DNA of 64,000 nt from an uncultured Thermoplasmata archaeon. Lineage in GTDB: Archaea > Thermoplasmatota > Thermoplasmata > Lutacidiplasmatales > UBA184. Positions within the stretch are counted from its first letter, which is position 1. Each line of letters starts with the position of its first letter. Positions 1,670 through 50,875 of the stretch are shown here, in pieces. Where the stretch lies: positions 121,991 to 185,990 of the forward strand of contig CAWISZ010000002.1 in the NCBI GenBank assembly GCA_963838955.1. The letters are read 5' to 3'. A program made the translations under genes and the position numbers. A model generated the notes under the pieces. That model saw only the letters and a program-made list of their open reading frames with translations. It made no database searches and had not been told where the DNA came from.

Positions 1670-2089
1670 GTTTCGGTCCCCCGTCCTCTTCGTGATCATA
1701 ACACCAGCCGGTGCTGTACACCAAGGACCCAGACCTGGGCCGAGGTGACGGCGCACGATCGGTCTCAGACCGGGCTGGGCTACTGGCTCCGAGGGGCGAC
1801 CGAGCAACTCATCGTTGCCGGCCGCGGCTCGCCCCGGAGGCGCTTCACGGGCCCGCACGGCGCCTCCGGGAAGGCGTGGAGCACCCTGCTGCTCGCGCGC
1901 CGCCGGGAGCACTCCCAGAAGCCCGACGAGGTCTATGCGATGGCCGAGGACATCGGCCCCATGCCTCGCTTGGAGCTGTTCGCTCGCTACCACCGGGGCG
2001 GCTGGGCGACCTGGGGCAACGTGACCCCGAAGGCGGGGCTCTACGGGCTCGGGAGCTTCGGGGCGCCGATCGCCGCGGACGCCGGGTGA
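1670..2089 (+). pseudogene. MT-A70 family N6-adenine DNA methyltransferase, C-terminal remnant only
   Basis: Translation GLGYWLRGATEQLIVAGRG...REHSQKPDEVYAMAEDIGPMPRLELFARYHRGGWATWGN matches MT-A70 C-terminal motifs. In-frame TAG just upstream (about 1667) and no DPPW-containing N-terminal half in any frame. Confidence 0.6.
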
Positions 2090-3545: not shown

Positions 3546-4712
3546 ACGGGAAGGTCATCGAGCTAGTGTAGCGTCCTCTGAATGGCTACGGTTATAACCG
3601 GGGAGGTCTTGGGGGCCATGTGCGAGTCGCCCCACCATTGCCTCTCACGCTGGAGGAACGGGACAGCCTCGAGAGCTGGGCGAGGGGCCACTCGACCCCT
3701 CATCGCCTCGTCCTCCGGGCCAAGATCGTCCTGAGGGCCACCGAAGGGGCTCAGAACAAGCAGATCGCCGAGGAGCTCGGCGTCCAAGCCAACACCTGCG
3801 CTCTTTGGCGCCATCGCTTCCACCACCTTCGCCTTCCCGGTCTCGAACAGGACGCCCCTCGAGCCGGTGGACCGCTGCAGATTCCCGACTCCACGATTCG
3901 GTCAATCGTCCACGACACGCTGCACACCAAGCCCCCGAACGCCACTCACTGGTCCACTCGGACGATGGCCGCACGGTACGGTGTGAGCCCCAACACCATT
4001 CACCAGATCTGGAGGGCGCGACGGCTCCAGCCACATCGACTGGAGCACTACAAGCTCAGCAAGGACAAACATTTCGAGGAGAAGCTCCGGGATGTTGTCG
4101 GCCTCTACCTCAATCCCCCCGAGCATGCCCTCGTGCTGAGCGTCGACGAGAAGACCCAGATCCAGGCGCTCGATCGGACCCAATCGATCCTCCCCTTGCG
4201 CGAAGGCATCCCCGAGCGACAGACCCACGACTATCGGCGGAACGGGACCACCGACCTCTTCGCGGCGCTCGATATCCTCAGCGGAAAGATCGTGGGGGAA
4301 TGCCACAAACGGCACCGAGCGAAGGAGTTCCTGACCTTCCTCCGAACCATTGACCGCACCACTCCTCCCGAGTTGGACCTCCACCTGATCCTCGACAACC
4401 TCGCTACGCATCGCACGGCGAGAGTGAAGCGGTGGGTTCTGCGGCACCCGCGCTTTCACTTCCATTTCGTTCCGACCAGCTCGTCTTGGTTGAACCAGGT
4501 CGAGCGGTGGTTCAAGGAGATTACCGACAAGCGGATTCGTCGGGGAACCTTCCGCAGCGAACTCGAGCTGATTGGGGCCGTGAAGCTCTACATCGAGCGG
4601 TACAACGAGGTCCCGAAACCGTTCATCTGGAGGGCTACGGCCGACGCGATCTTGTCAAAGATACAGAAGCACCAGTTAAACGTAGAACTGACGAGGACAC
4701 TACACTAGGAAA
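3546..4712 (+). mobile_element. IS630 family insertion sequence (about 1.17 kb)
   Basis: Transposase flanked by imperfect terminal inverted repeats CTAGTGTAGCGTCCTC (about 3546-3561) and GAGGACACTACACTAG (about 4697-4712), 15 of 16 complementary. TA present at both junctions. Confidence 0.75.
3620..4708 (+). CDS. IS630 family transposase (DDE)
   Basis: 362 aa; N-terminal HTH region; catalytic region with DNLATH...SSWLNQVERWF typical of IS630/Tc1-mariner transposases. Confidence 0.9.
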   Translation: MRVAPPLPLTLEERDSLESWARGHSTPHRLVLRAKIVLRATEGAQNKQIAEELGVQANTCALWRHRFHHLRLPGLEQDAPRAGGPLQIPDSTIRSIVHDTLHTKPPNATHWSTRTMAARYGVSPNTIHQIWRARRLQPHRLEHYKLSKDKHFEEKLRDVVGLYLNPPEHALVLSVDEKTQIQALDRTQSILPLREGIPERQTHDYRRNGTTDLFAALDILSGKIVGECHKRHRAKEFLTFLRTIDRTTPPELDLHLILDNLATHRTARVKRWVLRHPRFHFHFVPTSSSWLNQVERWFKEITDKRIRRGTFRSELELIGAVKLYIERYNEVPKPFIWRATADAILSKIQKHQLNVELTRTLH

Positions 4713-5445: not shown

Positions 5446-5898
5446 TCATCCAGAGCCCACGTCAGCGTCATCCCAGGTTGATTCTTCGGCTTCCTCCTTC
5501 ACCCGCTCGACCCAGACCACTACCCCGGGCGTGCCGTACTCCTTCTCGGCCTCGAGTCGCACCACCTGCGCGTCGTCTCTCCACACGATCCCCGTGAGAC
5601 TGTCGAGGCAGGCCCGAACGAGCTTGTCGAGATCCGGCCGGCGCTCCGGCCACGTCCGTAGCTTCTTCGGCGCGCTCTTCGGCTTCGGCACGTAGAACAT
5701 CAGCGTCACCGCCAGCGGGCCTTCCCACAAGCTGCTCGGAGCGTGCTGCTGGGCGACGTCGGAAACGAGGCGTCGCCACGCAGCCAAGCCTCGGTTCGCG
5801 GTCGTAATGTGGACCTTCCCGCCCACGACGAACCCACGCGCACTTCCTTGGGGTGCCGGAACTCCTCGGACCTCGAAGGAGATCATCTCCGCGCTCAT
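5446..5898 (-). CDS. rusA: RusA-like Holliday junction resolvase
   Basis: RRPDLDKLVRACLDSLTGIVWRDDAQVV aligns with the E. coli RusA core [29 protein letters not shown]. Start overlaps the stop of the upstream gene (ATGA). Confidence 0.8.
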   Translation of the reverse strand: MSAEMISFEVRGVPAPQGSARGFVVGGKVHITTANRGLAAWRRLVSDVAQQHAPSSLWEGPLAVTLMFYVPKPKSAPKKLRTWPERRPDLDKLVRACLDSLTGIVWRDDAQVVRLEAEKEYGTPGVVVWVERVKEEAEESTWDDADVGSG

Positions 5899-6422
5899 GC
5901 TCGAACCCGCCCGTGGACCATCTCGCGGGTCTCTTCGACGGCGGCCAGCGCCTCCTGCACCTTGAGCAGCAGGCTCTCCCGCAGCCGCTCCGTGAACTTC
6001 GCATCCGCTTCATCGAGGGCCGAGTAGAGCGCGACCTCGGCGCGCAGCGACTCGTACTCGGCCAGCCGAAGCGTGAACCCGATCCTCGCCCAGTCCCTTC
6101 CCGCATAGGGTCCTGGCTCGCCGGGGCTCTCCTGCGCGAGGGCGAGCGACTGAGGACATGCCGCAGTCGGAGATTCCTCTGACCCATGCCGCGTCGTGCC
6201 CTGCGCGCTGCAAGGAGGGGCGTGCTTGAACCTCCGCGACTCCCGGTCCCAGAGAAGCCTGCTGATTGGGGTTCCGGCGGGTAGGACGCCCCCGCACTCC
6301 GAGCAGCGTAGATCCTTGTGCAGCAGCTCGCCGTGGCCGCTTCCCAGGCTTGACGGTGTCTTCTGTTCGGCCCCAGGCCCTGTGGCGACCCCCGTAGAGT
6401 TCGACATCACTTCCACTCTCAC
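5895..6422 (-). CDS. hypothetical protein with CxxC pair and C-terminal coiled-coil, coupled to rusA
   Basis: 175 aa; CSECGG motif; its 5-prime end plus about 80 bp upstream lie inside direct repeat copy A. Confidence 0.55.
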   Translation of the reverse strand: MRVEVMSNSTGVATGPGAEQKTPSSLGSGHGELLHKDLRCSECGGVLPAGTPISRLLWDRESRRFKHAPPCSAQGTTRHGSEESPTAACPQSLALAQESPGEPGPYAGRDWARIGFTLRLAEYESLRAEVALYSALDEADAKFTERLRESLLLKVQEALAAVEETREMVHGRVRA

Positions 6423-6500
6423 CCGCGGGAGACGACGCTACGAACGAGCGAGTCTCTTCAAGGCGGGCCCAACACAAGTGGCGCTGCCCTGAGGTGCTTC
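6214..6500. repeat. direct repeat copy A (about 287 bp)
   Basis: About 85-90% identical by eye to 8797-9082, same orientation. Confidence 0.7.
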
Positions 6501-6603
6501 CCACGCTGACCGTCAGCGGGTTTGCGATGCGACGGTGTCTCGCGCCCTCCCACCGGAGTATCAGTCTCCTCGGATCTCTCGAGGATCCTCGGGCGGCGGG
6601 GCA

Positions 6604-7002
6604 ATGACAGCGGCTCGCGGGTTTTTCGAGGTCGAGCTGAAACCGGAGTCAGACGACCGCCGCGCCGATGGAAACAGCCTCGGATGCGTGGTCGTTGAAA
6701 AGCGATTCCATGGCGATCTCGAGGGGTCTGGCCATGGCCGGATGCTAACCGGCACGACCCGCGTGGAAGGCTCCGCAGGGTACGTGCTGATTGAGCGGGT
6801 TCGGGGCAAGCTCCACGGGCACTCCGGCACCTTCCTTCTGCAACATTGGGGCGTCCTCAATCACGGTGCCGCGAAACAGACCATAGAGATTCTCCCGGAT
6901 TCCGGCACGGGGGAACTTGCAGGACTCACGGGACACATGATGGTCCATATCGCGGGCGGAAAGCACTCCTACCAGCTCGAGTACACTCTGCCCGGTCGGT
7001 GA
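6604..7002 (+). CDS. DUF3224 family protein
   Basis: Pattern FEVELKPES...GRMLT...GYVLIERV...GTFLLQH...DSGTGELAGLTG...HSYQLEY. ORF opens at 6535; the more likely start is the Met at 6604. Confidence 0.6.
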   Translation: MTAARGFFEVELKPESDDRRADGNSLGCVVVEKRFHGDLEGSGHGRMLTGTTRVEGSAGYVLIERVRGKLHGHSGTFLLQHWGVLNHGAAKQTIEILPDSGTGELAGLTGHMMVHIAGGKHSYQLEYTLPGR

Positions 7003-7353
7003 CTTGAGCGCGCCAGCGAGCATCCGCCAAGCGTCTGGCACCCGCCAGTTCGTAAGCGACGATTACCTACTCTTCGATGATGCCCGTGTTTCAAACAGGC
7101 TGAGCACAATCCTCCGGAGGTGACAGGATCCCGTTTCGCGTCAGCGGACACCCAACCCAGATCGAGCCCCCATTCCTCCCCCCTAAACGGTCAGTTACGA
7201 GAAACCGGACCGGTTCCGGTGCCGAACTGGGACCCGCTGATAGAGTGATGTCGACCCTGATCTAATTCCGGGCGACCGTTCCCTCGGGGTTCGGCGACCG
7301 GGATATTGGCTGCCGGTCCCCAAGGAATCCGTCGTCCCGGGAGGCTATTTGCG

Positions 7354-7815
7354 ATGGGGGAATCCCTGCTCCCGCAGGTAAATCACATGGTCGCCGAGAA
7401 GACGCTACGATTTCAGGGTAAGAATCGAGACCTGAGCATGCTCGGCCAGCAGATCGTCCAACAGCTCCAGAGTCAAGGGTACAAGGTCCAGTCCACCACA
7501 TCCCCGACCGGGACGGTGATCCAGGCCGCCAAGGCCGGAATCCTGCGCGATATCATCGCGGCAGATCGGGTATTCTCCATCCTGATTTCGGGCCAGCCCG
7601 ACGATTTCACCGTGCGCGTCGGCATCGGCAAGCTGATCCAGAACCTCGCGGTGACCGCCGTCGAGGCATTGCTGCTCACCGAGCTCTTCCTAGTCGTGGA
7701 CGTCCCTGAGATGCTCTGGACCGTGCATGTGGAAAAGCAGGTCATCCAGCAGATCGAGCAGATTGTGGCGAGCCCATCGACGTCGGCGCCCATCGAAGGG
7801 ACCCCTCTGAAATAG
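7354..7815 (+). CDS. hypothetical protein
   Basis: ORF 7306..7815, Gln/Ile-rich, coding-like; no family recognised; start uncertain. Confidence 0.45.
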   Translation: MGESLLPQVNHMVAEKTLRFQGKNRDLSMLGQQIVQQLQSQGYKVQSTTSPTGTVIQAAKAGILRDIIAADRVFSILISGQPDDFTVRVGIGKLIQNLAVTAVEALLLTELFLVVDVPEMLWTVHVEKQVIQQIEQIVASPSTSAPIEGTPLK

Positions 7816-8038
7816 TGAGAAACGGACGCCTTCTCCGGCTGGTCCCATGCTCGTACGATCTCCGAGAGCATTGGACCGTACGCCGTCCGAATGGCCTCGT
7901 CGAGAGAATCGACCTTAGCCAGCATAAGGCAGCAGACCTCCTCGCCCGTGTTCCAGACGACCCGCCTGCCATGGAGGAGGTGAATCGGTGCGCGTGGAAG
8001 AATGGGTTTAAGAGGAGGCGCGGGGGAGAATCAGCCCT

Positions 8039-8731
8039 ATGGCTCTCGGCAGCGCCCCGCTCCACCGCTCGGTCCGCACCGGCGCCATCTTGTTCGTCTT
8101 GGGACCGCTCGCATTCGTCGCTGCGATGATCGTGGCGCAACTCTACTACCCGAACTATTCGTTGTCGACCAACTTTATCAGCGACCTCGGTAACACGGCC
8201 AACTCGCCATTGTGGTACGTCTTCAGCGCGGGTATCATCCTGCTCGGGCTCCTCGCCATCGCTGCGATCCTGTTGCTCTGGAGCACCTTCCCCGACGGAG
8301 GGCTCCGGGTCGCAGGTCTCGGGCTGCTGTTGGTCGCCAGCGTCGGCGCGATCGTAGTCGGCTTTTTCCCGGAGAACGTGAACGGAACCGTCCATGGAAC
8401 CGCGTCCCTGGTGGTCTTCCTGCCAAGTGGCCTGGCTCTCCTGGCGCTCGGAGCCTCGATGCGCGAGACCTCGGGCTGGGAGTCGCTCCGATGGTTCTCC
8501 ATCGCCCTCGGCGCCATCACCCTCGTCTTCGTCGCCCTCTTTCACTTCACGAGCGTCGGCGCCAACCTGTACCCCGGCCTCTTCGAACGCATCGTGGTCG
8601 CGCCGGTCCTCCTCTGGTCCATCGTGGTTGGGATCTTCCTAGCGAGGTTTCCCGTGCGGGCGCCTCACTGGGTGGCTGGCCTCGCCCACGTAGCTTCGAC
8701 CCCGAGGCGCCGCTCCGGGGGTTTATTTTGA
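8039..8731 (+). CDS. DUF998-like integral membrane protein
   Basis: 230 aa, about six predicted TM helices. Confidence 0.6.
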   Translation: MALGSAPLHRSVRTGAILFVLGPLAFVAAMIVAQLYYPNYSLSTNFISDLGNTANSPLWYVFSAGIILLGLLAIAAILLLWSTFPDGGLRVAGLGLLLVASVGAIVVGFFPENVNGTVHGTASLVVFLPSGLALLALGASMRETSGWESLRWFSIALGAITLVFVALFHFTSVGANLYPGLFERIVVAPVLLWSIVVGIFLARFPVRAPHWVAGLAHVASTPRRRSGGLF

Positions 8732-8759
8732 CGTTCACGCAACCCTTCCCCTTGGTCCA

Positions 8760-8993
8760 TCAAAAGCCGCGATCTGTTACGCTCAGAACCTGACGTTTGA
8801 ACCTCCGCGAATCTCGGTCCCAAACAAGCATGCTGGTCGGGGTGCCAGTCGGTAGGACGCCGCCGCACTCCGAGCAGCGTAGATCCTTGTGCAGCAGCTC
8901 GCCGTGTCCGCTTCCCGCGCTTGGCGGTGTCTTCTGTTCGGCCTCAGGCCCTGTTGCGACCTCCGTAGAGTTCGACATCAGTTCCACTCTCAC
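8760..8993 (-). pseudogene. truncated paralog (5-prime fragment) of gene 5895..6422
   Basis: First about 66 aa (MRVELMSNSTEVATGPEAEQKTP...CSECGGVLPTGTP) closely match the N-terminus of the 5895..6422 product, then a premature stop. Lies inside direct repeat copy B. Confidence 0.55.
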
Positions 8994-9082
8994 CCGAGGG
9001 AGGCGACGCTACGAACGAGCGAGTCTCTTCGAGGTGGACCCGACACGAATGGCGCTGTCCTGACGTGCTATCCCGCGTTCGT
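8797..9082. repeat. direct repeat copy B (about 286 bp)
   Basis: Aligned by eye to 6214-6500. Confidence 0.7.
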
Positions 9083-9110
9083 TCTCAACGGGCTAACGCT
9101 GCGACGAATC

Positions 9111-9497
9111 TCACTGGGGCGGCGGTGCCTGAATGAAGCCTCCCGGAGCGGCTTCGTACACCTTGCGCGCCGCGCGCGGGTTGCCCGTCACGCGCGCGAT
9201 CCTCCAACGCGAACCCTCATCGTGGACGAGGAGAACCTGCACTCGCCCGTCTTCGGCTGCATCCGCTCGTCGCTTGATCTCCGCGATCGCCGGCCGCTTG
9301 AGGGTATCCGCATCGTGGGTCAAGCACCCGAACATGGACGTGCCGGGGATGGGCTTACCGTGCTGCTCTACGTAGATCCAGATGACGAGCGCCCCCGCCG
9401 CGAGCCGCTCCTTGCAGACGAGGCAGCCGGTTCCCTTCGGTAGGTATGTGCGGTAGCCCACCAGATGGGGCTCGGGATTCGACTCCGTGACCATCAT
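9111..9497 (-). CDS. hypothetical protein
   Basis: 128 aa, coding-like; no family recognised. Confidence 0.45.
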   Translation of the reverse strand: MMVTESNPEPHLVGYRTYLPKGTGCLVCKERLAAGALVIWIYVEQHGKPIPGTSMFGCLTHDADTLKRPAIAEIKRRADAAEDGRVQVLLVHDEGSRWRIARVTGNPRAARKVYEAAPGGFIQAPPPQ

Positions 9498-9724
9498 CCT
9501 TTATGGACGACGTTACGAAGCGGCTGCGATCACTTGCGTGCGAACAGAGGGCCGCGCTACAAACATTCACCCACCGGTGCCGGGTCTCCCTACCGAGCTG
9601 GGTCTTCGAAGGGGGGAGTCCAGCCGAATTCGACCGGTCAATGCCTAGGGAGGGCATGGACGCGGGTCGGTATCCCACTGCCCCCGTCGCGAGGCTTTTG
9701 GGGATGATGTGCTAACGGCATGCG

Positions 9725-10597
9725 ATGGCGCGCCCGCGTACGGTAACGGTTCCGGGACGCCGATCGTTCGAGTACGTCGCTCAGGGCAGAGGCCCGGCGA
9801 CGCTTCTAGTCCATCCGGGCGGACCCGGATTGAGCTACCACTACCTCCGTGGCCTCCTCAAGCTCGCGAACGCGAATCTGCGCGTGATCCTGTTCAACCC
9901 GCGTGGCGTGGGCCACAGCTGGGCCCCGAAGAACCCCCGAGAGTACACCATCGCCAACATGGCCGAGGATGTGGAGGCGATCCGTCGGGCGTTCGGCATC
10001 CGGGAGCTCCACCTGTTAGGCTACTCGGCCGGGGGGTTCGTGGCGCTCGAGTACGCCCATCGTTACGAACGCCGTCTGACGTCGCTCTTGCTCTGCGCGA
10101 CCGCCGGCAGCGCCGAGGAGATCCGAGCCGCCAACCGGATGATGCTCGCCTCCGCCTCTCCCCGACGACGAGCGCGCCTGAGGGAACTCACCAAGGCGAA
10201 GGCGTTCGAGTCGCCCGAGTACCAAAAGCTCACGGAGCAGGTCGCCCAGCCGTTCCAGACCCGATTTCTCACGTCGACGCCGGCGGATTGGAAGAGGACG
10301 AAGTCCCATCCCGTTGTTTACCATGCGATGATGACCCGCACCGGCGATGAGCTCGCGGTCGACGGAACGATTGCCTCGTGGGACGGACGGAAGTATTACT
10401 CGAAGATCGAGGTGCCCACCGTAGTCGTGGTCGGGAAATACGATTTCTTCCTCGAGCCATCGATGGAGATGGCCGAACGGATCGAGCCCGCCCACCTGCG
10501 CGTCCTCCCCCACAGCAGTCACATGGAAGTGCTCGAGCAACCTCGCGAGTTCCTGGGGACTATCCGGGAATTCCTCGAGGATGTGACGGGCGGTTGA
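9725..10597 (+). CDS. alpha/beta hydrolase (proline iminopeptidase-like)
   Basis: HPGGPGLS motif and nucleophile elbow GYSAGG; 290 aa. Confidence 0.85.
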   Translation: MARPRTVTVPGRRSFEYVAQGRGPATLLVHPGGPGLSYHYLRGLLKLANANLRVILFNPRGVGHSWAPKNPREYTIANMAEDVEAIRRAFGIRELHLLGYSAGGFVALEYAHRYERRLTSLLLCATAGSAEEIRAANRMMLASASPRRRARLRELTKAKAFESPEYQKLTEQVAQPFQTRFLTSTPADWKRTKSHPVVYHAMMTRTGDELAVDGTIASWDGRKYYSKIEVPTVVVVGKYDFFLEPSMEMAERIEPAHLRVLPHSSHMEVLEQPREFLGTIREFLEDVTGG

Positions 10598-11008
10598 CGG
10601 CCGACGCGCCCCCCGTCAAGGAACGATCCGATACAAGCAGCCCCTTTCGTCGCTGACACTATCGTGGGTTCGCCATTCGATAACTCTCAGTGCGATGCTT
10701 CGTACTTCCTCGGCGAGCGGGGCGACGGGCCATATCACGAGGTCGGGGGATGTACTCGTAGCAACTCGGCACGCTCGCTCTACACGCGAGAGACTCTGCA
10801 CATTGTTCGGCGCTCCTTCCTGAGGGGTCTGCGGATTCGACGACGCCTAGGGGTCGAGGGATCGTCGGCCGAAAGAGGGCCTTCTCTTCGCAAATGACCG
10901 ATACCGATAGTAGGCTCCTGAGTCTGCCAGACCCGTTCGTTAGGCGTTCGTTTCGCGCAGCCCAATCACCGAGGGGCGACCAAGGCGCGCCGTTATGCAA
11001 GGGCAGGT

Positions 11009-12319
11009 GTGGCCCCGCCCACCGTGGTCGAATTCACTCCTGTTCGGGCCTGGCATCCGAACCCGAAGGTCGTCGACCCCGACGAGACTGTTTGTCCGGT
11101 GTACGACACGCTCTCGGAACTGGATTTCGCCCGATTCGTTGTCCGACCGTTCAACGCCGCACGGTTCGTTCCGCGACGCCAGACCACCACGCTCCAGCGC
11201 TTCCTCGCGACGGCGAAGGAGGAGCTGGGACGCGCGCTGGAGGCCGGAGCCTACATCCGTGACGAGGCCCCCGGGTTCTACGTCTACGGCATCCAGTACC
11301 GCCCACCCCCAGACATTTCGGAGACGATCCCTACCTCGGGCCGCCGAAGCGAGTACCTCCTCCTCGGCCTTGTCGGTGCCCTGGATTTCGACAGCATCCA
11401 GCACGGTCAGGTCGCCCTGCACGAGCATACCTTCCCGGACCGGGTCGACGAGCGAGCGGCTCTGACCGATGCCACAGGCATGTCCTTCGCGCCCATCGTG
11501 GCGGGCTACAACCAACCGGGTCACGAGCTCAACGCGCTCCTCGAATCGACCCTCGGTCTCGATCGACGTCGCCTCGACTTCGGCGGTCGGCTCGCTCCGG
11601 TGGTCGAAGCGCGTCTCGATGGCACGCACCACCGCTTATGGCAGATTTCCGACCCGGCGCTCGTTCGGCAGCTGGTCGAAGCGCTCCGCCCGCTCCGGTT
11701 GCTGATCCTCGACGGACATCATCGGTTCACTGCGGCCGCCAAACGCCACTACCACGGCCGGCCGTCCGCTCCCCTTGTCATGCTCGTCGACGGACACGAC
11801 AGGGCCCTCCATGTGATGCCGTGGCACCGCGTCCTCCATGCGCGCCAGCTTGACCCCCGGGCCTTTCTCGACGCGGTCCGACGAGAGCCCGACCTCGCGG
11901 TCCGCTCGCTCGCTCCACTCACTGTGGAGGCGGCGATCGGGCAGCTCGCCGACATGGAAGCGGGTCACCGCCGGGGCTTCCTGGCCGTGACGCTGGAAGG
12001 AGCCCTCGAGGTGAATGGAGAGCCTTCCACCGACGCCGGTGCCGACTTCGACCTGCTCCACGCCTTCCTCGAAGACCGGCTCGGCATCGACGCCCATGAC
12101 CTCGAGTTTGTGCGCTCGCCGCGATGGGCGATCGAACAGATCCGGAAGGAATCCCCTGGGACTGCGCTTCTCCTCCCGGCGCTATCGGAAAGCGGCATCG
12201 AGGACCGCGCGTTCCAGCGTGGGAATGTCATGGCCCACAAGTCGACGATGTTCCTCCCTAAAGTCGTGGAGGGGCTGATCTTCGCATCTGCGGCCCCGGG
12301 CAGGGACGAAAAGGCTTGA
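11009..12319 (+). CDS. DUF1015 (COG4198)-like protein
   Basis: 436 aa; N-terminal pattern V.AWHPNP...VCPVYDTLSE resembles DUF1015. Confidence 0.55.
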   Translation: MAPPTVVEFTPVRAWHPNPKVVDPDETVCPVYDTLSELDFARFVVRPFNAARFVPRRQTTTLQRFLATAKEELGRALEAGAYIRDEAPGFYVYGIQYRPPPDISETIPTSGRRSEYLLLGLVGALDFDSIQHGQVALHEHTFPDRVDERAALTDATGMSFAPIVAGYNQPGHELNALLESTLGLDRRRLDFGGRLAPVVEARLDGTHHRLWQISDPALVRQLVEALRPLRLLILDGHHRFTAAAKRHYHGRPSAPLVMLVDGHDRALHVMPWHRVLHARQLDPRAFLDAVRREPDLAVRSLAPLTVEAAIGQLADMEAGHRRGFLAVTLEGALEVNGEPSTDAGADFDLLHAFLEDRLGIDAHDLEFVRSPRWAIEQIRKESPGTALLLPALSESGIEDRAFQRGNVMAHKSTMFLPKVVEGLIFASAAPGRDEKA

Positions 12320-13110
12320 GACGAGTATGCAGCTTCCGCTAGAATGAGCTAATCGGCAAAGGGTGGCTTGCGCACGGTGCCAGTTCGGCAACATTCGGGA
12401 GGTCGGATTGCCCAGTTTGTGGTCTGGGAGATGATATGGATACTGCTCCCTTCCGATGCCGGGGGTACGTCGTGACTGCACGGCGCCGTTGTCCGGCCTG
12501 CCTGGCCCTCCTCGCTGACGGCGAAACGCACGTCCGAACCGCCGAGCTCGACGGGATCGAGAGCGGGGAGGCAACGTACTACTGTAAGAGGTCCCGGTCC
12601 CGCGTCAGCGTACGCAAGCCCGGTGCGCCGCCCCTCCTGGCTCGAAAGGCGCGGCGGACCGTGGGTAAGATTCTCCGGGGAGGGTCCGGTCCATGAGGCG
12701 CGACCCGTTCCTTCGCACAGGGCTTCCGGCTCGACGTGCCTGCTATGGAGCACCGAGGGGACCGGCGTCGGCGCGCTCGTCCCGCCATACCGGGCCGCTC
12801 GCCATCCTGCTATTCGGTGCTCTCGCCCTGATCCTCGCTCTGCTCTACTCCACGACCGGGGGAGGAGCCGAGCATGAACCCCGACGACTTCCCTTGTCCC
12901 TTGTGCGGGCTCGACCTGGAGGCGGACCCGCATACTAGGGACGGCTTTTGGGCGATCGTCCAGGCACGGAAGGCCTGACTCCAACGTACGCGCCCTCCTC
13001 GCGGTGGTCCTCGATCGGGAGTTTTTCCGTTCATATTTCGACGGAGAGAGTGAACTAACCTGACCCAAGGAAGAGCTCCGAGCGCCGCCCTACGAAGAGC
13101 GGATTCATCG

Positions 13111-13703
13111 CTAAGTGCGGACGACGACGACCTCGCCCGGTTTGGGGGGAGGGTGCTCTTTTCCTCGGCTCGTAGTGTCATTATCTGGGCTCCAACCGTG
13201 CCATCGACGAAGTAGTTTGACGCGGACGGACAGTCGTGCGCCCCTGAAATGATGACGATAGAAGTCCAAGGTCATCGCATGTTCCTCGAAGACGACAGAC
13301 TCGTTGTACCCGCCAACCGCCTCGAACGCATCCCGGCGAACGGCGGCGAATCCCGACATGAACAGCTTGTATCCGAACACGGACGTCAACACGTTGAGCA
13401 TCGTGCTCTCGGCCCGCATCATGAATCGGTCCACCGGCGCCCGGGCCAATAGAGTTCCGCGATGGCGAACTGCCAATTCCAGGTCAACCATGTTGTCCAA
13501 TCCCAGTCGGCCACCAGATGGACATCATCGTCCAGAAACACGAACACATCACCGGACGCTGCCGCCGCTCCGATGTTGCGGGCGTGGGCAGCTCCACCCG
13601 GGGCCGAGACTACGATGAATTCTGAGCCGGTGGGGAGCATCGCCCCGATCCGGTGGATGTTGGCCGGCTCGGGACTTCGTGTGGGGGTGATGAACGATAT
13701 CAT
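13111..13703 (-). pseudogene. glycosyltransferase family 2, frameshifted
   Basis: ISFITPTR...DVFVFLDDD (DxD) in ORF 13419..13703 and SGFAAVRRDAFEAVGGYNE in ORF 13111..13500; the two frames overlap at 13419-13500. Confidence 0.7.
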
Positions 13704-16999: not shown

Positions 17000-18780
17000 G
17001 CTCGAACTGTCCATCTCGAAGCGACGAACAAGCTGACCATGGAGAACATCGTCGGGTTCATCCGTCGACCTGTGGTTCCTCACGGAACTGGAGCGAAGGT
17101 CACCTGTCCGAGGGCGTTCCTGGGGAAGACCGTCTATCTGGTGATCACCGACGAGGATTGGCCCGAGGATCGACCTCGCCGAGGGAGGCGACCATGAGCG
17201 GCTACGTTCGAGCCGTTCACCGTCACCAGCAGATTCTGATGCCCGACCTTCTGGACGACTACGTGACGGAGGAGAACCCGGTGCGGTTCCTCGATGTGTT
17301 CGTCGACGGCTTGGACTTGAGCGAGCTCGGGATCACTCACGCCGAACCGAACGAGACGGGACGACCACCGTATGATCCCGCGGCTCTGCTGAAGCTCTAC
17401 CTCTATGGCTACCTCCACGGGGTGCGTTCCAGTCGGAAGCTGGAACAGGAGTGCCATCGCAACCTGGAGGTGATGTGGCTCCTGCGCAAGCTCACCCCGG
17501 ACTTCAAGACGATTGCCGACTTCCGCAAGGACAATGTCGATCGCTTCCGACCCTTGTTCCAGCGGCTCGTGGCTCTCGGCCGAGAACTCCGCCTGCTGGA
17601 GGGAGATTTGGTGGCGATCGACGGGAGTAAGTTCCGAGCGGTGAACGCGAAGGACCGCAACTTCAATCGTGCGAAGCTCGCCGACCGGACGAAGGCGATC
17701 GAGAAGAGCATCGATCGCTACCTGCGTGAGCTGGATGAGAATGACGCGAAGGAATCGGAGAATCCCGGTCTTCCGTTGCGCGTCCCGAATCTCCAGGAGA
17801 AGATCGAGCGGCTGAAGGAACGACAGCGCCGCTATCGAGGTCTGCTCGAGCAGCTGGAGACGACCGGGGCTACCGAGATCTCCCTCACCGACCCGGACAG
17901 TCGCATGATGAAAGGGAACCATGACCGGATGGAGGTCAGCTACAACGGGCAGATCGCCGTCGAGGCCGACAGCAAGCTCATTGTCGCCTACGATGTCGAC
18001 AACAAGGCGTCCGACCACCACCAGCTCGCCTCGATGGCGGAGCAGGCTCAGGCAGCTCTACGACGGTCGTCTCTACGGGCTGTCGCGGACCGCGGATACT
18101 ACGATGGCGAGCAGGTCCGTCGATGCATCGCGCGGGACATCACGCCGTACGTTCCGGAGCCCGAGAAGGGGCGAGGGGCAGCCGAACGGACCGCCATGGC
18201 TCCGGAATTCCAGCGAGACCGGTTCGTCTACGATCCCACGACCGACACGGTTCGATGCCCCGCCGGAGCTCGGTTGACCTTCCGTGGGGAGCGTCGGACC
18301 CATTGGCACCAGCGCCCGGGGGGAATTCTCGAGCGCGAATATCGGACGGACCAGTGTCCTTCCTGTCCGCACTTCATGACACGGTGCACCCACAATCCGA
18401 TGGGACGACGGTTCCATCGACGAGAGAACGATGAGCATCTGGAGGCGATGCGGAGGCGAGTGCGAACCGACGAGGGAGAGCGAATCCTCGCCGAGCGCCA
18501 ATCGGTCGTGGAACACCCGTTCGGCACGATCAAACGAGCGTTCAACCAAGGCTACCTGTTGTTGAAAGGGCTTCGGAAGGTGATGGGGGAAATGGGGCTC
18601 ACGATGATCGCGTATGACCTGAGACGGTTGCTGAGCCTGGTCGGAACCCGAGCTCTGGTGGCCCACCTATCGAGCGAACGAAGAGCTCGAGGGGCTGCGG
18701 CCTGAACTCCCCTCTTCCCCGAATTCGAACGGACAAAGGAGTGGAGGGATCTCTCGAACCGGCCGACGTTTTTACACAGT
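17000..18780 (+). mobile_element. IS1182 family insertion sequence (boundaries approximate, inverted repeats not resolved)
   Basis: Single long transposase ORF; ends inferred only from coding extent. Confidence 0.4.
17158..18705 (+). CDS. IS1182 family transposase
   Basis: 515 aa; N-terminal LLKLYLYGYLHGVRSSRKLE and C-terminal DDE region typical of IS1182; alternative start at 17194. Confidence 0.9.
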   Translation: MARGSTSPREATMSGYVRAVHRHQQILMPDLLDDYVTEENPVRFLDVFVDGLDLSELGITHAEPNETGRPPYDPAALLKLYLYGYLHGVRSSRKLEQECHRNLEVMWLLRKLTPDFKTIADFRKDNVDRFRPLFQRLVALGRELRLLEGDLVAIDGSKFRAVNAKDRNFNRAKLADRTKAIEKSIDRYLRELDENDAKESENPGLPLRVPNLQEKIERLKERQRRYRGLLEQLETTGATEISLTDPDSRMMKGNHDRMEVSYNGQIAVEADSKLIVAYDVDNKASDHHQLASMAEQAQAALRRSSLRAVADRGYYDGEQVRRCIARDITPYVPEPEKGRGAAERTAMAPEFQRDRFVYDPTTDTVRCPAGARLTFRGERRTHWHQRPGGILEREYRTDQCPSCPHFMTRCTHNPMGRRFHRRENDEHLEAMRRRVRTDEGERILAERQSVVEHPFGTIKRAFNQGYLLLKGLRKVMGEMGLTMIAYDLRRLLSLVGTRALVAHLSSERRARGAAA

Positions 18781-18785
18781 CTCGA

Positions 18786-19100
18786 CCCCTATCGGACAGC
18801 GCCGAACCTGCGCACGAACTGCCGGCCGCCGATGTGTCCCGAGCGGGGTCTTCCGGAGCCAAGTCCGCGGCACCTCGACTGGACTATCGATACTTACGAA
18901 CGGCGGCACGAAACTCCGCGTGGGTCTCGCTTGAGTCCGAACGCGACGCTCCGATTTGACGGAGGAACGCCAGCAGGTTCGGCCATGCGGAGACGGGACG
19001 CCGCGTCGGCTCTACGTACTCGAAGCACGTGACATATCTCAAGAGTTTGGTCTCAGCTTCCTCAAACCGATCGCACCGTCGAATCGCTCCCGCAGTGTCG
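18786..19100. repeat. direct repeat copy A (about 315 bp)
   Basis: About 90% identical to 20438-20757; starts a few bp after the estimated IS1182 right end. Confidence 0.7.
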
Positions 19101-19378
19101 AGGAACCAGAGGGTGAAGATGAACTCGGATTCGCCCTCGGACGTCTCGGTTCCCGGCAACCGTAGGCGTAGCTCCGCCCGCGGGACGGGGGCACGTCGGG
19201 CTTTCAATTCGGAGAGGACCTTGGCCCCATAGCCGGTCCATGACGCGAGTTCACGCTCCGTGTCGTCTAGGTCACCGTCGCCGGAGGGGGACAAATCTGC
19301 TATCGCCTTCGGAGTGAATTCCATGCCATACGCGAGCGTCCGACTTCCTGCTAAAACACGACGGGAGGGGGCATGCAA
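18884..19378 (-). CDS. hypothetical protein
   Basis: 164 aa; its 3-prime about 215 bp lie within repeat copy A. Confidence 0.5.
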   Translation of the reverse strand: MHAPSRRVLAGSRTLAYGMEFTPKAIADLSPSGDGDLDDTERELASWTGYGAKVLSELKARRAPVPRAELRLRLPGTETSEGESEFIFTLWFLDTAGAIRRCDRFEEAETKLLRYVTCFEYVEPTRRPVSAWPNLLAFLRQIGASRSDSSETHAEFRAAVRKYR

Positions 19379-19431: not shown

Positions 19432-20259
19432 GTGTTCCCGTTTCGGCACATGGAGCTCCGGATCGGCTGCTCGTCCTGGACCTCAGAAGCGTGGTGGGGT
19501 CGGCTCTATCCAACCGGCCTGAGAGACGGGGAACGACTCGCATGGTATGCGAAGCTCTACGATACCGTCGAGGTTGATTCGACGTACTACCGACCGCCCT
19601 CCGAGTTTCTAGTCCGTCGGTGGGCGTCGGTTACTCCTGAAGGATTCCTCTTCACCCTGAAGTTCCCGCGCGACCTTCTCGATCCCAAGCGGCCGGTGGA
19701 CGTTGCGAAGATCGATAGTTTCCTCGCCAGCGCGCGGCTCCTCGGCCCGAAGCTGGGTCCGATCCTCCTTCAGTTCCCTCCCTGGGTGAAGCCCGGGAAG
19801 GCTAGCGGCTTTCTCACCGAGACGCTCACCGCGCTCGACCATCAGCTTCGATACTCCGTGGAACTTCGGGATGCCGGTTGGTTCCGTGGCTCGACGTGGG
19901 ACAGCCTTTTCGCACAGCTTCGGGATCGCCGAATCGCTCTCACATGGTCCTACCTGACGTATGTCGAGGTCCCGCCCGAGCTTACGTCGGACTTCGTGTA
20001 CTTGCGGTTCATCGGCGACCATACCACGGTGCCGGAAAGCATCCACGGAGAGATGCGGATCGACCGATCCAGAGAGACTCAACGCTGGGCCAACCGAGTG
20101 AAGGCTGTTGCGAACCGCGTCCTATCGACGTTCGCATTCTTTAACAACCACTTCGCTGGGTTCGCTCCCGAGTCGGTGAACCTGTTCCGGCAGGAGATGG
20201 GGTTGGAACGGATAGATTACGCGCCGGCAGCTCACCAGCGCAGATTGGACGTTTCGTAG
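19432..20259 (+). CDS. DUF72 (UPF0759) family protein
   Basis: IGCSSW..W.G.LYP and TVEVDSTYYRPP patterns; 275 aa. Confidence 0.8.
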   Translation: MFPFRHMELRIGCSSWTSEAWWGRLYPTGLRDGERLAWYAKLYDTVEVDSTYYRPPSEFLVRRWASVTPEGFLFTLKFPRDLLDPKRPVDVAKIDSFLASARLLGPKLGPILLQFPPWVKPGKASGFLTETLTALDHQLRYSVELRDAGWFRGSTWDSLFAQLRDRRIALTWSYLTYVEVPPELTSDFVYLRFIGDHTTVPESIHGEMRIDRSRETQRWANRVKAVANRVLSTFAFFNNHFAGFAPESVNLFRQEMGLERIDYAPAAHQRRLDVS

Positions 20260-20437
20260 CTCGTCCGTTCGGTCGGAGCTTCTAGATCGATGTTGGCTCC
20301 GGAGGGTGGACGAAGTGTTGTGAGGTCGCTCGTAGGGACGCGATGGCGCTTCCGATCCGGTATCCACGCACCATGCGGTGGCATCTCCGCGGCCTCGGCC
20401 GGAAGGCATGATGTCCGCGGAACGGCGGCGAATGGGG

Positions 20438-20757
20438 ACCCCTATCGGACAGAGGCGAACCTGAGCACGAACTTCCCTACCGCCGATGGGGCCCGACCGG
20501 GGTCTTCCGGAGCCAAGTCGACGGCGCCTCGACTGGACTATCCATACTTACGCACGGCGGCACGAAACGCCGCGTGGGTCTCGCTTGAGTCCGACCGCGA
20601 CGCTCCGATTTGACGGAGGAACGCCAGCAGGTTCGGCCATGCGGAGACGGGACGCCGCGTCGGCTCTACGTACTCGAAACACGCGACATAGCTCAGGAGT
20701 TTGGTCTCAGCTTCCTCAACCCGATTGCATTGTCGAATCGCTCCGTCGGTGAAGGAG
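20438..20757. repeat. direct repeat copy B (about 320 bp); degenerate 3-prime remnant of a paralog of 18884..19378
   Basis: Sequence matches copy A but no intact minus-strand ORF remains. Confidence 0.65.
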
Positions 20758-29517: not shown

Positions 29518-29925
29518 CTATCTCTTCTTCCCCTTCTTCGCCGTTTTCTTGACGCCGGCTGCCTTGAATCCCTTCTTCGCCCCGGAGCCCGCGCCCTTCG
29601 CGCCACCCCAGAGTTGGCTGCCGAGCTTACGGGCTTTCTGGCTCGTCTTCGGCCCCCCTTCCTTGGCGCCACCTTCCTGGAATCCTTTCTTCGCCCCGGA
29701 GCCCATGCCCTTCGCGCCGCCCCAGAGCTCACTGCCGAGTTTACTAGCCCCCTCGCCGAGCTTATCGGCCTGGGTTTTCATCTTCTGTTCCATCCCCACG
29801 TTCGTCCCTACTTCGTGTCCGCAGCCCGGACACCACTTCGCGCCCTCCGGTAGCTCTGCTCCGCATCCTTCACATTTCATGGTCGTGTCGCCTCCCTCTG
29901 CAAGCGAGCCTGAAGGGTCTTTCAC
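29518..29925 (-). CDS. zinc-ribbon protein with Gly/Lys-rich 32-aa tandem repeat
   Basis: CEGCG...CPGCG ribbon, then KLGSELWGGAKGMGSGAKKGF and KLGSQLWGGAKGAGSGAKKGF repeats. Confidence 0.6.
   Translation of the reverse strand: MKDPSGSLAEGGDTTMKCEGCGAELPEGAKWCPGCGHEVGTNVGMEQKMKTQADKLGEGASKLGSELWGGAKGMGSGAKKGFQEGGAKEGGPKTSQKARKLGSQLWGGAKGAGSGAKKGFKAAGVKKTAKKGKKR
29540..29731. repeat. two tandem copies of an about 96-bp unit inside gene 29518..29925
   Basis: Units CCTTCTTCGCCCCGGAGCC...GCGCCRCCCCAGAG...CTGCCGAG visible by eye. Confidence 0.5.
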
Positions 29926-44839: not shown

Positions 44840-45776
44840 CTCCGTGGCTGACCGAGCGCAGGAAGACGTCCTCGAGCGTGTTCTTGCGCACGCTGATCCA
44901 TTCCAGCTGGACCCCCATCTTCTGCGAGAGATCGAGGATCTTCGCGAGGGAGTCCTTGGGATCGTCGGTGAGGATGACCACCGAGTCGCCGTTCGGGGTC
45001 ACGCTCGTCCCGGCGCCGAGTCGCTCGGCGAGCGCAGGAATGAACGTAGCCACGCTCCCCGGATCGACGGTCAGGTCGATGGTCTTCTTCCCCCCGTAGA
45101 GCCGCTTGAGGTTCTCGACCTCGTCCAGGACGAGGAGCTTCCCCTCGTCAATGACCGCGATCCGGTCGCAGACGTAGTCCGCCTCCTCCAGATTGTGCGT
45201 CGTGAACACGACTGTGAGCCCGCGCTTCGCCTCCTCCCGGATCGAGTCGAGGAGCGTGCGCCGCATGATCACGTCCATTCCGACGGTCGGCTCGTCCAGG
45301 AACAGGATGTCCATGTCGTGGATGAACTCGCGAGCGACCTGGACCCGGCGTTTCTGGCCCCCCGAGACATCGAACGAACGGCGGTGTCGGATCTCTTCGA
45401 GACCGAACTTCTGGATCAGGGCCTCGCGACGTTCCCGCCGCTGCTCCCGAGGAACTCCCCACAGCACTCCGTACACGTCGAAGTTCCCTTCGACGGTCGT
45501 AAAGTCGAACGATTCACCCTGCTGGACGACCCCGATGCGGGACCGGATCTTCTTCCCCTCCTTCGCCGGATCCATCCCGAATATGCGGAGCGTTCCGGAA
45601 CTCGGGCGGATCAGCGTGGTCATCGCCTTAATGAGCGTCGACTTTCCGGCGCCGTTCTTGCCGAGCAGCCCGAAGATCTCTCCCTTGCGGATTGTGAAGC
45701 TCACACCGTTCAGCGCGAAGCGCTTGCCATCGTACGAATGGCGAAGGTCCTCTGCCCGCACGATGGGGTCGGCCAT
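44817..45776 (-). CDS. ABC transporter ATP-binding protein
   Basis: Walker A GKNGAGKST, signature SGGQKRR, Walker B ILFLDEP. Start MADPIV at 45776 (ORF extends to 46172). Confidence 0.9.
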   Translation of the reverse strand: MADPIVRAEDLRHSYDGKRFALNGVSFTIRKGEIFGLLGKNGAGKSTLIKAMTTLIRPSSGTLRIFGMDPAKEGKKIRSRIGVVQQGESFDFTTVEGNFDVYGVLWGVPREQRRERREALIQKFGLEEIRHRRSFDVSGGQKRRVQVAREFIHDMDILFLDEPTVGMDVIMRRTLLDSIREEAKRGLTVVFTTHNLEEADYVCDRIAVIDEGKLLVLDEVENLKRLYGGKKTIDLTVDPGSVATFIPALAERLGAGTSVTPNGDSVVILTDDPKDSLAKILDLSQKMGVQLEWISVRKNTLEDVFLRSVSHGGEPLGSA

Positions 45777-49825: not shown

Positions 49826-50875
49826 ATGCCTTCCGATCAGATTGCCCTGCAGACGTTCGATCTCGGATACGCGTACGCTCCGGGACGGTTTGCCATTCGG
49901 CATCTCAACCTCGATCTGCACCGGGGAGAGGTGCTGGGGCTGCTTGGGCGCAACGGCGCGGGCAAGACCACGACCGTACGGCTCCTCACGACGCTGCTGC
50001 CTCCGACCGAGGGAACCGCCATCGTCCTAGGTCAGGATGTTCGGCACGGCGGTCGCGCGCTCCGCGCGCGTCTGGGAGTCGTGCTTCAGGCGGAATCGCT
50101 CGACTTCGTGACGGTGGAAAGGAATCTCACGCTCTACGCATTCCTCTGGGGAGTACCGCGCGAAGTAGCGAAGACCCGGGCGGAGGAGATGATCGAGCTC
50201 TTCGAGCTCCGAGAGGCTCGGCGTCGCAAGCCGTGGGCCCTCTCCGGCGGGGAGCGCCGCCGTTTCCAGGTGGCGCGAGAGCTGATGCACGACATGGAGA
50301 TCCTGTTCTTGGATGAGCCGACCGTCGGCTTGGACGCGATCGCGCGCCGCAGGATCCTCCGCTACCTGAAGGAGCGGGCCCGCCGCGGCCTCTCGATCGT
50401 GTTCACCACGCATATCCTCCACGAGGCGGACATGCTGTGCGATCGGATCGCGGTGCTCCATCTCGGCCGGCTCCTCGCCCTCGATACGGCCGAAGAGCTC
50501 AAGCGCAAGCACGCCGGGGCGCGCGAGGTATCGGTCACGTTCGCTGCCCCGCCGGCGCCCGCGCTCCGGACCGAGCTCGCGCGCGAGCTCGAAGTCCGCG
50601 GTGCGGTCCTCCTGGAACGGGAGGAGGATCTCTCGGCTCCCGATACCAAGCTCGCGTTCTTGGCACCGCACGCCGAGGAGATGCTGCCGTGGCTCAGCCA
50701 CTGGGCTCAGTCCCACGCGCTCGAGCTCGAGCGGATGTCCGTTGAGGAGGCGACGCTCGAGGCGGCATTTCTGGGGATGATCGGAGACCTGGACGAGAAT
50801 CTCGCCGGCGAAACGAACGACCGCGATCGATCCTCTGGCGCGCTCCCCCCGGGGCGCATCGGGGGACTCACGTGA
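49826..50875 (+). CDS. ABC transporter ATP-binding protein (paralog of 44817..45776)
   Basis: GRNGAGKTT, SGGERRR, ILFLDEP; shares LWGVPRE and HDM(D/E)ILFLDEPTVG with the other copy. Confidence 0.9.
   Translation: MPSDQIALQTFDLGYAYAPGRFAIRHLNLDLHRGEVLGLLGRNGAGKTTTVRLLTTLLPPTEGTAIVLGQDVRHGGRALRARLGVVLQAESLDFVTVERNLTLYAFLWGVPREVAKTRAEEMIELFELREARRRKPWALSGGERRRFQVARELMHDMEILFLDEPTVGLDAIARRRILRYLKERARRGLSIVFTTHILHEADMLCDRIAVLHLGRLLALDTAEELKRKHAGAREVSVTFAAPPAPALRTELARELEVRGAVLLEREEDLSAPDTKLAFLAPHAEEMLPWLSHWAQSHALELERMSVEEATLEAAFLGMIGDLDENLAGETNDRDRSSGALPPGRIGGLT

Follow-up and report, generated by a model that had tools for sequence, protein, structure and literature searches.

Single-crossover integration of the Campbell type is familiar from suicide-plasmid integrants and from some natural insertions. 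Among described chromosomal loci, a diverged second copy of the 3′ end of icd, 163 bp long, flanks the e14 prophage (PMC6379469), and Rhs, CDI, and T6SS effector loci have been described as sites of homology-facilitated illegitimate recombination with “orphan” arrays (PMC5361080). We compared with these systems a locus in which two direct repeats bracket a block of three genes, located in a 64-kb stretch of DNA from a Thermoplasmata archaeon (64,000 nucleotides, referred to here as the window). The structure represents a recombination scar of an ordinary kind, not a novel type of element. The features of the locus are as follows.

5446 to 5898, minus strand: rusA, Holliday-junction resolvase family; 4 nt at its start are shared with the end of the Zn-ribbon/helical gene.
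5895 to 6422, minus strand: intact Zn-ribbon/helical gene (Zn gene), 175 amino acids from a GTG; annotated with 170 amino acids from the ATG at 6407.
6226 to 6534, minus strand: repeat copy A, an intergenic stretch plus the first 66 codons of the intact Zn gene (61 from the ATG at 6407).
6535 to 8796: inserted block of about 2.26 kb between the repeat copies, without terminal repeats or a recombinase gene.
6604 to 7002, plus strand: DUF3224 gene (Pfam, E=8.5e-37); annotated start at 6604, longest open reading frame from 6535.
7354 to 7815, plus strand: gene for a conserved hypothetical protein without a Pfam match; 1624 family hits, 80 to 92% identical across many Thermoplasmata.
8039 to 8731, plus strand: DUF998 membrane protein gene (Pfam, E=3.3e-26), convergent with the stub open reading frame.
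8760 to 8993, minus strand: stub open reading frame of 77 amino acids, made up of 66 codons homologous to the Zn gene and 11 unrelated ones; not called in the public annotation.
8797 to 9106, minus strand: repeat copy B, the same stretch as copy A, joined to orf128 at the 3′ end of that gene and truncated after codon 66.
9111 to 9497, minus strand: orf128, 128 amino acids, located directly upstream of the Zn gene in the related loci L011 and L012.

Self-blastn aligned positions 6226 to 6534 with 8797 to 9106 over 310 nt at 86.1% identity with gaps (E=4e-100), and a repeat search of the window recovered the ungapped part (6226 to 6498 against 8797 to 9069, 273 nt) at 89%. Both copies have the same orientation, and their identity is far above chance. 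A 56-nt core (6280 to 6335 and 8851 to 8906) occurs exactly twice in the window, with none expected from 100 shuffles, and only two copies of the repeat are present in the 64 kb; a dispersed repeat family would show more than two in the genome as a whole. The original prediction, a direct repeat of about 286 bp (6214 to 6500 and 8797 to 9082) with an estimated identity of 85 to 90%, agrees well with these alignments, the true outer end lying about 25 to 35 nt further out in sequence of lower identity. With respect to gene content, the repeat begins at the stop codon of orf128 and reaches codon 66 of the Zn gene. The window also contains a second pair of direct repeats, of about 308 nt and with gene-end content, at 18784 to 19090 and 20437 to 20744.

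Two strain variants of the locus stitched together during metagenome assembly could produce a similar picture, given that the sequence is from a MAG and that the divergence of the copies is comparable to that between related strains or species. However, a de Bruijn graph would keep copies of 86 to 89% identity apart, without collapse or cross-joining, unique sequence flanks each copy on both sides, and a second assembly (GCA_049280295.1, locus L001), which may share reads with the first, has the identical structure and is 99.99% identical over 11.8 kb spanning both copies and both junctions. We thus regard an assembly artifact as exceedingly improbable.

The 4-nt overlap bears out the coupling to rusA that had been proposed for the minus-strand gene whose 5′ end lies in copy A. 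The rusA product belongs to the RusA family, as judged by a full-length profile match (Pfam RusA PF05866, E=1.4e-21, profile positions 6 to 123 of 124; PHROG 140, E=9e-37), and resolvase activity is predicted. The Zn gene encodes an N-terminal CxxC...HxxxC zinc ribbon, a variable disordered linker, and a conserved two-helix C-terminal domain. In the AlphaFold model (pTM 0.30), ribbon residues 30 to 70 have pLDDT values above 90, the linker is disordered, and residues 107 to 174 form two long helices, in support of the earlier description as a Zn-ribbon/coiled-coil protein. The protein is 100% identical to P0001 from a Thermoplasmata archaeon; its best remaining homologue in the protein collection shows 64% identity. 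Searches with the Zn protein and the orf128 product against Pfam, PHROGs, PADLOC, and NCBIfam gave no match, the Zn family profile matched no PDB sequence, and IMG/VR viral contigs yielded neither a relative of the protein nor the Zn-rusA pair. The Zn-ribbon/helical protein is a Thermoplasmata-specific, uncharacterized protein. The pairing with rusA is kept in every relative with enough sequence; GTDB genomes gave two loci and JGI metagenomes four, too few for population-level inference.

The repeat had also been suggested to contain a promoter, in a context assumed to be bacterial, whereas the source is a Thermoplasmata archaeon. Neither upstream copy contains a hexamer with at least five A/T positions, and the duplicated upstream stretch therefore has no TATA-like box in either copy, so that the suggested promoter remains putative in this archaeon. 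When the upstream regions of ten family members were aligned, only a Shine-Dalgarno (SD)-like motif near the start codon was conserved, and no regulatory element could thus be defined.

Copy B had been described as a truncated paralog at 8760 to 8993 in which 66 homologous codons are followed by a stop. The 66 codons were confirmed and show 85% amino acid identity to the Zn gene, but the stop is not immediate, as the 11 unrelated codons precede it. The stub has kept the CxxC motif and has lost the His and Cys ligands (two zinc ligands) as well as the entire C-terminal domain. Judged by this coding content, copy B is a dead, non-functional gene fragment, and the open reading frame at 8760 to 8993 should be treated as a pseudogene stub in annotation.

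The domain search agrees with the predicted order of DUF3224, a hypothetical protein, and DUF998 between the copies. The nearest non-self homologue of the DUF3224 protein is 68% identical and lies in a different gene context, and in relatives the gene for the conserved hypothetical protein adjoins neither DUF3224 nor DUF998. In none of the relatives examined do the three genes neighbor a Zn-rusA module or one another. The ends of the insert share no match of 8 nt or more in either direct or inverted orientation, and microhomology at the junction does not exceed about 3 nt. Pfam searches detected no integrase, transposase, or other recombinase in the bracketed segment, and none of the neighbors of the block, namely rusA, orf128, and an alpha/beta hydrolase gene, encodes a tyrosine or serine recombinase. 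Across the whole window, searches for tRNAs and, at gathering thresholds, for Rfam families returned no tRNA and no structured RNA, indicating that neither a structured RNA nor a tRNA attachment site is involved.

Two kinds of element were considered and rejected. A transposon, MITE, or insertion sequence does not fit an insert without terminal repeats or a transposase, a repeat present in only two copies in the 64-kb window, and a duplication of 310 nt. A diversity-generating retroelement (DGR) does not fit either, as the 20 coding mismatches between the copies involve all four bases and no reverse transcriptase is encoded between or beside the repeats.

To place the insertion, we compared the locus with relatives. 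In L011 and L012, orf128, the Zn gene, and rusA are contiguous, and the block is absent from the homologous position. The orf128 product is 59% identical to its counterpart in L011 and 70% identical to that in L012. With about 93% identity between L011 and L012, the comparator is effectively one lineage. In three- and four-way alignments, copy A is homologous to L011 and L012 past codon 66 and not upstream of about position 6541; copy B, in turn, is homologous to them upstream into the 3′ end of orf128, and its homology ends right after ...CGGAGGTTCAA (8797). The upstream ancestral junction, with orf128, has thus been kept by copy B and the downstream one, with the rest of the Zn gene, by copy A. 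Gene order and alignment in these relatives show that the orf128/Zn/rusA module was once contiguous. The original prediction of a segmental duplication or recombination scar is therefore supported, each copy keeping one ancestral junction, while the suggestion that the repeats mark the edge of a RusA-bearing element was not upheld: because L011 and L012 have orf128, which lies beyond copy B here, in synteny with Zn-rusA, the 2.26-kb block is an insertion within the module and not its edge.

We tentatively interpret this structure as the scar left when two diverged versions of the orf128/Zn-ribbon/rusA module underwent homology-anchored recombination, a reading whose probability we place a little short of even. 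In its favor are the presence of the repeat in both assemblies, the contiguous module of L011 and L012, and the lack of an integrase, transposase, terminal repeats, or tRNA associated with the insert. The incoming DNA would have carried the three genes beside its own, already diverged copy of the 310-nt stretch and would have entered by a crossover within the shared stretch, either through a single crossover with a circular molecule (Campbell type) or with one homologous and one illegitimate end. A crossover of this kind would necessarily leave two copies of the homologous stretch, one on either side of the insert. Copy A heads the working Zn-rusA pair, and copy B remains with orf128 as a dead stub. 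Recombination between A and B could still release the block in the form of a 2.57-kb circle and thereby restore the module. However, a circle of 2.57 kb made up of cellular genes and a gene fragment would be an odd donor. This counts against the proposed route, as do the use of what is effectively a single comparator lineage and the lack of visible microhomology beyond about 3 nt at the junction. Neither a donor nor an insert-free strain of the same species was found, as exact look-ups with the Zn protein and orf128 matched the same organism only. Nor did the surroundings of the nearest homologues of the three genes reveal a donor arrangement; as the genes adjoin neither a Zn-rusA module nor one another in any relative examined, the postulated arrangement is unobserved.

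The divergence of the copies bears on whether they arose in place. By this account, a break or replication error in the resident module doubled about 310 nt, and 2.26 kb of ectopic DNA became trapped between the copies, which then diverged in situ to 86 to 89% identity, with B a pseudogene from the start. This is the simplest reading of direct repeats around an insert, and it is consistent with the loss of two zinc ligands from the stub and with A and B being each other's closest relatives (dS of 0.25, compared with 0.44 to 0.55 for A or B against L011). Yet A and B are about as diverged as the orthologues in L011 and L012 (dS of 0.205), and most of their differences are synonymous. If B had been neutral, a dN/dS of about 0.6 to 0.65 would be expected, whereas the values observed, from 20 substitutions only, are 0.31 for the full comparison and 0.18 for the ribbon part; that of L011 against L012 is 0.24. 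Neutral evolution over the whole path between A and B was rejected (P = 0.016 and 0.006), and a half-neutral path, with B dead at duplication, was borderline (P = 0.11 and 0.04). Moreover, B is not more derived than A (5 derived changes compared with 8), and its amino acid replacements fall at family-variable positions by inspection of the family alignment. To our knowledge, no process routinely yields target duplications of 310 nt. Duplication in place is thus an unlikely origin, and the synonymous bias in these sequences weakly favors recombination between two diverged module versions over a fresh duplication. Divergence from L011 and L012 is also mosaic along the module, with dS values of 0.18 to 0.24 in the Zn C-terminal domain, 0.5 at the N terminus, about 1 in the linker, and 0.76 in rusA, as expected if recombination between lineages occurs at this module.

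The bias toward synonymous differences would also fit two formerly functional copies that decayed where they stood. In this case, two related modules would once have been neighbors, for example because related elements integrated one after the other, and the three genes would have lain between them or upstream of the second module. Deletions would then have taken away everything past codon 66 in the first module and orf128 in the second. Relatives do contain such litter: L007, L008, L014, and L015 carry additional Zn or rusA fragments of about 100 to 460 nt, 67 to 87% identical, within a few kilobases of an intact module, and diverged versions of the module therefore co-occur and break up in these genomes, which is also in line with the homology-anchored scar. 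However, decay would require at least two deletions, one of which would have ended almost exactly at the orf128 stop codon, and no second rusA, Zn C-terminal, or orf128 fragment is present in the 64-kb window. We consider this alternative possible, at a clear minority of the probability.

A further alternative is site-specific integration at codon 66 of the Zn gene by an element that supplied a surrogate 5′ end and upstream region, as in the e14/icd case, so that the gene stayed intact and copy B is the displaced original 5′ end. The topology mirrors icd/e14/icd′, and a 14-nt block identical in both copies, TCGCGGAGGTTCAA (minus strand), lies exactly at the end of the homology. This terminal 14-mer is not distinctive, because longer identical blocks, of up to 56 nt, lie inside the repeat. 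The 2.57-kb unit has no integrase or other recombinase inside or adjoining it, its cargo consists of three cellular-type genes, and the window lacks a tRNA, all of which make site-specific integration very unlikely. The original prediction that the repeat is not an attachment site was thus probably right, given the lack of a recombinase, a tRNA, and terminal repeats, but the argument given for it, that the repeat is long, diverged, and includes coding sequence, is weak, as the e14 case demonstrates that such repeats can flank integrated elements.

For annotation, the DUF3224, hypothetical, and DUF998 genes are best taken as inserted into a RusA-linked module and not as parts of it. A bolder proposal is that the Zn-ribbon/rusA module is a recurrent recombination hotspot in these Thermoplasmata that captures and releases gene blocks via its conserved 5′ stretch. 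We give this only a slight chance of being correct. If it were, it would explain the module fragments in L007, L008, L014, and L015, the 2.57-kb unit would be excisable as a circle that switches orf128-Zn-rusA between split and intact forms, and the repeat pair beginning at 18784 and 20437 would point to a genome-wide process duplicating about 66 codons plus about 100 nt of flank. Beyond annotation, the locus has little significance. The Zn-ribbon/helical and RusA pair has been rearranged and fragmented repeatedly in these archaea, and this pattern could serve studies of archaeal mobile elements or recombination.

Among known structures, the window resembles decayed remnants of prophages and integrated elements in containing rusA, insertions of the IS630 and IS1182 types, and gene fragments, including one feature outside the locus:

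1745 to 2089: truncated MT-A70 methyltransferase fragment.

Unlike in such remnants, no integrase, capsid gene, or attachment site was identified in the window. As at e14/icd′ of Escherichia coli, a diverged coding duplicate of a gene end flanks the insert, and a surrogate end keeps the gene intact; e14, however, has its own integrase and targets a 3′ end, whereas the present unit involves a 5′ end, is 2.57 kb long, and contains no recombinase. The orphans of Rhs, CDI, and T6SS loci share with this locus a conserved anchor, an illegitimate other end, and displaced fragments beside an active gene, and relatives of the module accumulate fragments as well. There, the displaced pieces are 3′ toxin or immunity parts with a selective role, while the piece displaced here is a 5′ Zn-ribbon stub, with no toxin or immunity logic evident. 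In contrast to Campbell-type integrants, no circular donor is known for this insert, its copies are 11 to 14% diverged, and the host is an uncultured archaeon. As in those integrants, the homologous segment is directly repeated around the insert with one copy in each flanking context, a truncated gene stub is left behind, and the arrangement would be reversible by recombination between the repeats.

A repeat search of the window recovered the direct repeat of the original prediction at 6226 to 6498 and 8797 to 9069 (273 nt, 89% identical without gaps), confirming that it is real, and self-blastn of the window extended the pair to 310 nt with 86.1% identity (E = 4e-100). We refer to 6226 to 6534 as copy A and to 8797 to 9106 as copy B; both lie on the minus strand. 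A 56-nt core of the repeat occurs exactly twice in the 64-kb window, versus zero occurrences expected from shuffled sequences. The corresponding locus in a second assembly of the same organism (L001, GCA_049280295.1) is 99.99% identical across 11.8 kb spanning both copies, and it is scarcely credible that the pair is an assembly artefact. Scans of the whole window detected no Rfam families and no tRNA. Read along the minus strand, the locus consists of orf128, copy B, an insert of 2.26 kb (6535 to 8796) with plus-strand genes, copy A with the Zn gene, which encodes a Zn-ribbon/helical protein, and rusA:

1745-2089, plus strand, MT-A70/phage-type DNA methyltransferase fragment, truncated, matching the C-terminal half of the profile only
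3620-4708, plus strand, IS630-family transposase
5446-5898, minus strand, rusA; its start overlaps the Zn gene stop by 4 nt
5895-6422, minus strand, Zn gene (175 aa), headed by copy A; the annotated start is the ATG at 6407
6604-7002, plus strand, DUF3224 gene
7354-7815, plus strand, conserved hypothetical gene
8039-8731, plus strand, DUF998 gene
8760-8993, minus strand, stub ORF (77 aa) in copy B
9111-9497, minus strand, orf128

The orf128 stop codon forms one end of the repeat and Zn codon 66 the other. Identity between the copies rises from 62% over the 45 nt beside orf128 to 85% over the following 78 nt and 90% over the 197 nt of coding sequence, and the homology stops after ...CGGAGGTTCAA. 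Beyond codon 66, the stub continues for 11 unrelated codons and then stops; according to the family alignment, it lacks the ribbon His and Cys ligands and the entire C-terminal domain. The promoter that had been placed within the repeat is unproven: a TATA-like box is absent, because neither upstream copy contains a hexamer with five or more A/T, and the source is an archaeal MAG, so bacterial promoter logic is inapplicable. An SD-like motif beside the start codon is the only conserved element upstream of the Zn gene in ten family members.

The closest protein match, P0001 (100% identity), carries an annotation as Thermoplasmata archaeon MAG, and homologues of the Zn protein come without exception from similar metagenomic archaea, making up a small family restricted to such organisms. 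The family alignment and an AlphaFold model revealed a CxxC...HxxxC zinc ribbon (residues 30 to 70, pLDDT >90), a disordered variable linker, and a conserved long-helix pair. The protein had no matches in Pfam, PHROGs, PADLOC, NCBIfam, or PDB sequences and no relatives in IMG/VR viral contigs. RusA follows it at every locus with enough sequence.

We then compared the locus with those of relatives. At L011 and L012, which are ~93% identical to each other and represent one comparator lineage, an orf128 homologue (59% and 70% amino acid identity, respectively) lies immediately 5' of the Zn gene and rusA, with no intervening gene; in other relatives, the genes upstream of Zn-rusA differ. In multiple alignments with L011/L012, homology carries on into the orf128 3' end for copy B only and past codon 66 for copy A only. 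Because each copy keeps a different L011/L012 junction, the module of orf128, the Zn gene, and rusA was formerly contiguous. On the evidence of these alignments, the 2.26-kb block is an insertion during which the 310-nt stretch was duplicated. The block sits within the module and not at its border, which contradicts the proposal of a RusA-bearing element with its edge at the repeats.

Of 197 coding positions, 20 distinguish copy A from copy B (10 third, five first, and five second codon positions). Over 61 codons from the ATG, the Nei-Gojobori method gave a dS of 0.25, a dN of 0.077, and a dN/dS of 0.31 (0.18 in the ribbon part); the L011-L012 orthologues have a dS of 0.205 and a dN/dS of 0.24. 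Neutrality of the whole path between A and B was rejected (p = 0.016 and 0.006), and the dN/dS of ~0.6 to 0.65 expected of a copy B that was a pseudogene from the outset was only weakly disfavoured (p = 0.11 and 0.04). With L011/L012 as the outgroup, eight derived changes fall on A and five on B, and inspection of the family alignment placed the amino acid replacements of B at positions that vary within the family. Taken together, the dN/dS values, derived-change counts, and replacement sites favour, without proving, the view that the copies diverged mainly as parts of working genes; two diverged module versions would then have been joined by recombination. We consider duplication in place followed by divergence improbable.

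Extra Zn or rusA fragments (~100 to 460 nt, 67 to 87% identity, both orientations) lie no more than a few kb from the intact module at four loci of relatives: L007 (2749-2902, 3872-4241), L008 (4578-5039, 8550-8672, 11586-11683), L014 (1721-1961), and L015 (25-189, 1130-1327, 4293-4418). In two of these cases, L014 and L015, a fragment from the rusA 3' end lies in reverse orientation directly against one from the Zn C-terminus. The dS against L011/L012 is mosaic: within the Zn gene it is 0.5 for the N-terminus, ~1 for the linker, and 0.18 to 0.24 for the C-terminal domain, and orf128 and rusA have values of 0.55 and 0.76, respectively. The C-terminal helical domain (5895-6120, 93 to 97% nucleotide identity) is two to four times below the flanking N-terminus, linker, rusA, and orf128, suggesting recent inter-lineage exchange or nucleotide-level constraint. 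The fragments and the mosaic dS indicate that the module has undergone repeated recombination and decay. That the present locus is what deletion left of two neighbouring module copies is possible, if unlikely. To the left of rusA lie the IS630-type transposase, within which the second assembly's contig terminates, and the MT-A70 fragment; together with rusA, they suggest a degraded mobile-element neighbourhood, although the Zn protein lacks IMG/VR relatives. Just downstream of the L007 module is a tandem array (9561-13562) of about four 930-bp units, 99% mutually identical, each with overlapping 129-aa (plus) and 102-aa (minus) ORFs.

A second direct-repeat pair, 18784-19090 and 20437-20744 (308 nt, 91.9% identical, 1653 nt apart), resembles copies A and B in size and content (~66 codons plus ~100 nt) and is unexplained. 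Its left copy comprises the last ~66 to 68 codons of a minus-strand ORF (18884-19378) plus 100 nt of downstream flank, and its right copy consists of a lone fragment from the 3' part of the gene, preceded by stop codons; the pair brackets the 5' half of the ORF and a DUF72 gene (19432-20259), with an IS1182-type transposase gene (17158-18705) just to its left. We regard as highly improbable the reading in which the module is a hotspot of recurrent capture and release, or in which, as this pair hints, a process in this genome makes ~310-nt gene-end duplications. Elsewhere in the window are a short tandem duplication (29545-29630 and 29659-29744, 86 nt, 84% identity) and an inverted pair (45103-45533 and 50075-50505, 433 nt, 68% identity) that probably represents paralogous genes.

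All three insert genes are members of ordinary cellular families: there are 5566 homologues of DUF3224, of which the closest other than itself is 68% identical, and 1624 of the conserved hypothetical, which are 80 to 92% identical across many Thermoplasmata. At the loci of its relatives, including L016 and L018, the homologue of this highly conserved 128-aa protein has genes of defence type (TIR domain, reverse transcriptase, DarT) close by in some Thermoplasmata and lies among housekeeping genes in others. In the relatives examined, the insert genes adjoin neither one another nor the Zn-rusA module. GC content is unremarkable, the two ends of the insert share no inverted or direct match of at least 8 nt, and the insert contains no recombinase genes. 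The absence of a recombinase disfavours an alternative that we think very unlikely, in which site-specific integration would have supplied a surrogate 5' end, mirroring the case of e14 in icd (PMC6379469).

The best explanation of the insert and the duplicated stretch, held tentatively, is a homology-anchored insertion. Beyond the observed junction anatomy and comparative synteny, we infer its donor, crossover type, and timing. Incoming DNA that had its own version of the 310-nt stretch beside the three genes would have recombined with resident DNA inside that stretch. In one route, a circle would have integrated by a Campbell-type single crossover; in the other, one end would have been homologous and the other illegitimate, the pattern described for homology-facilitated illegitimate recombination (PMC5361080). 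By either route, the stretch would be duplicated and the resident 5' end reduced to a stub. The scar reading of the original prediction, unlike its element edge, is upheld: an uncharacterised module of archaeal genes here bears a recombination scar of an ordinary sort, complete with a pseudogene stub, and provides one more case of a known kind of event.
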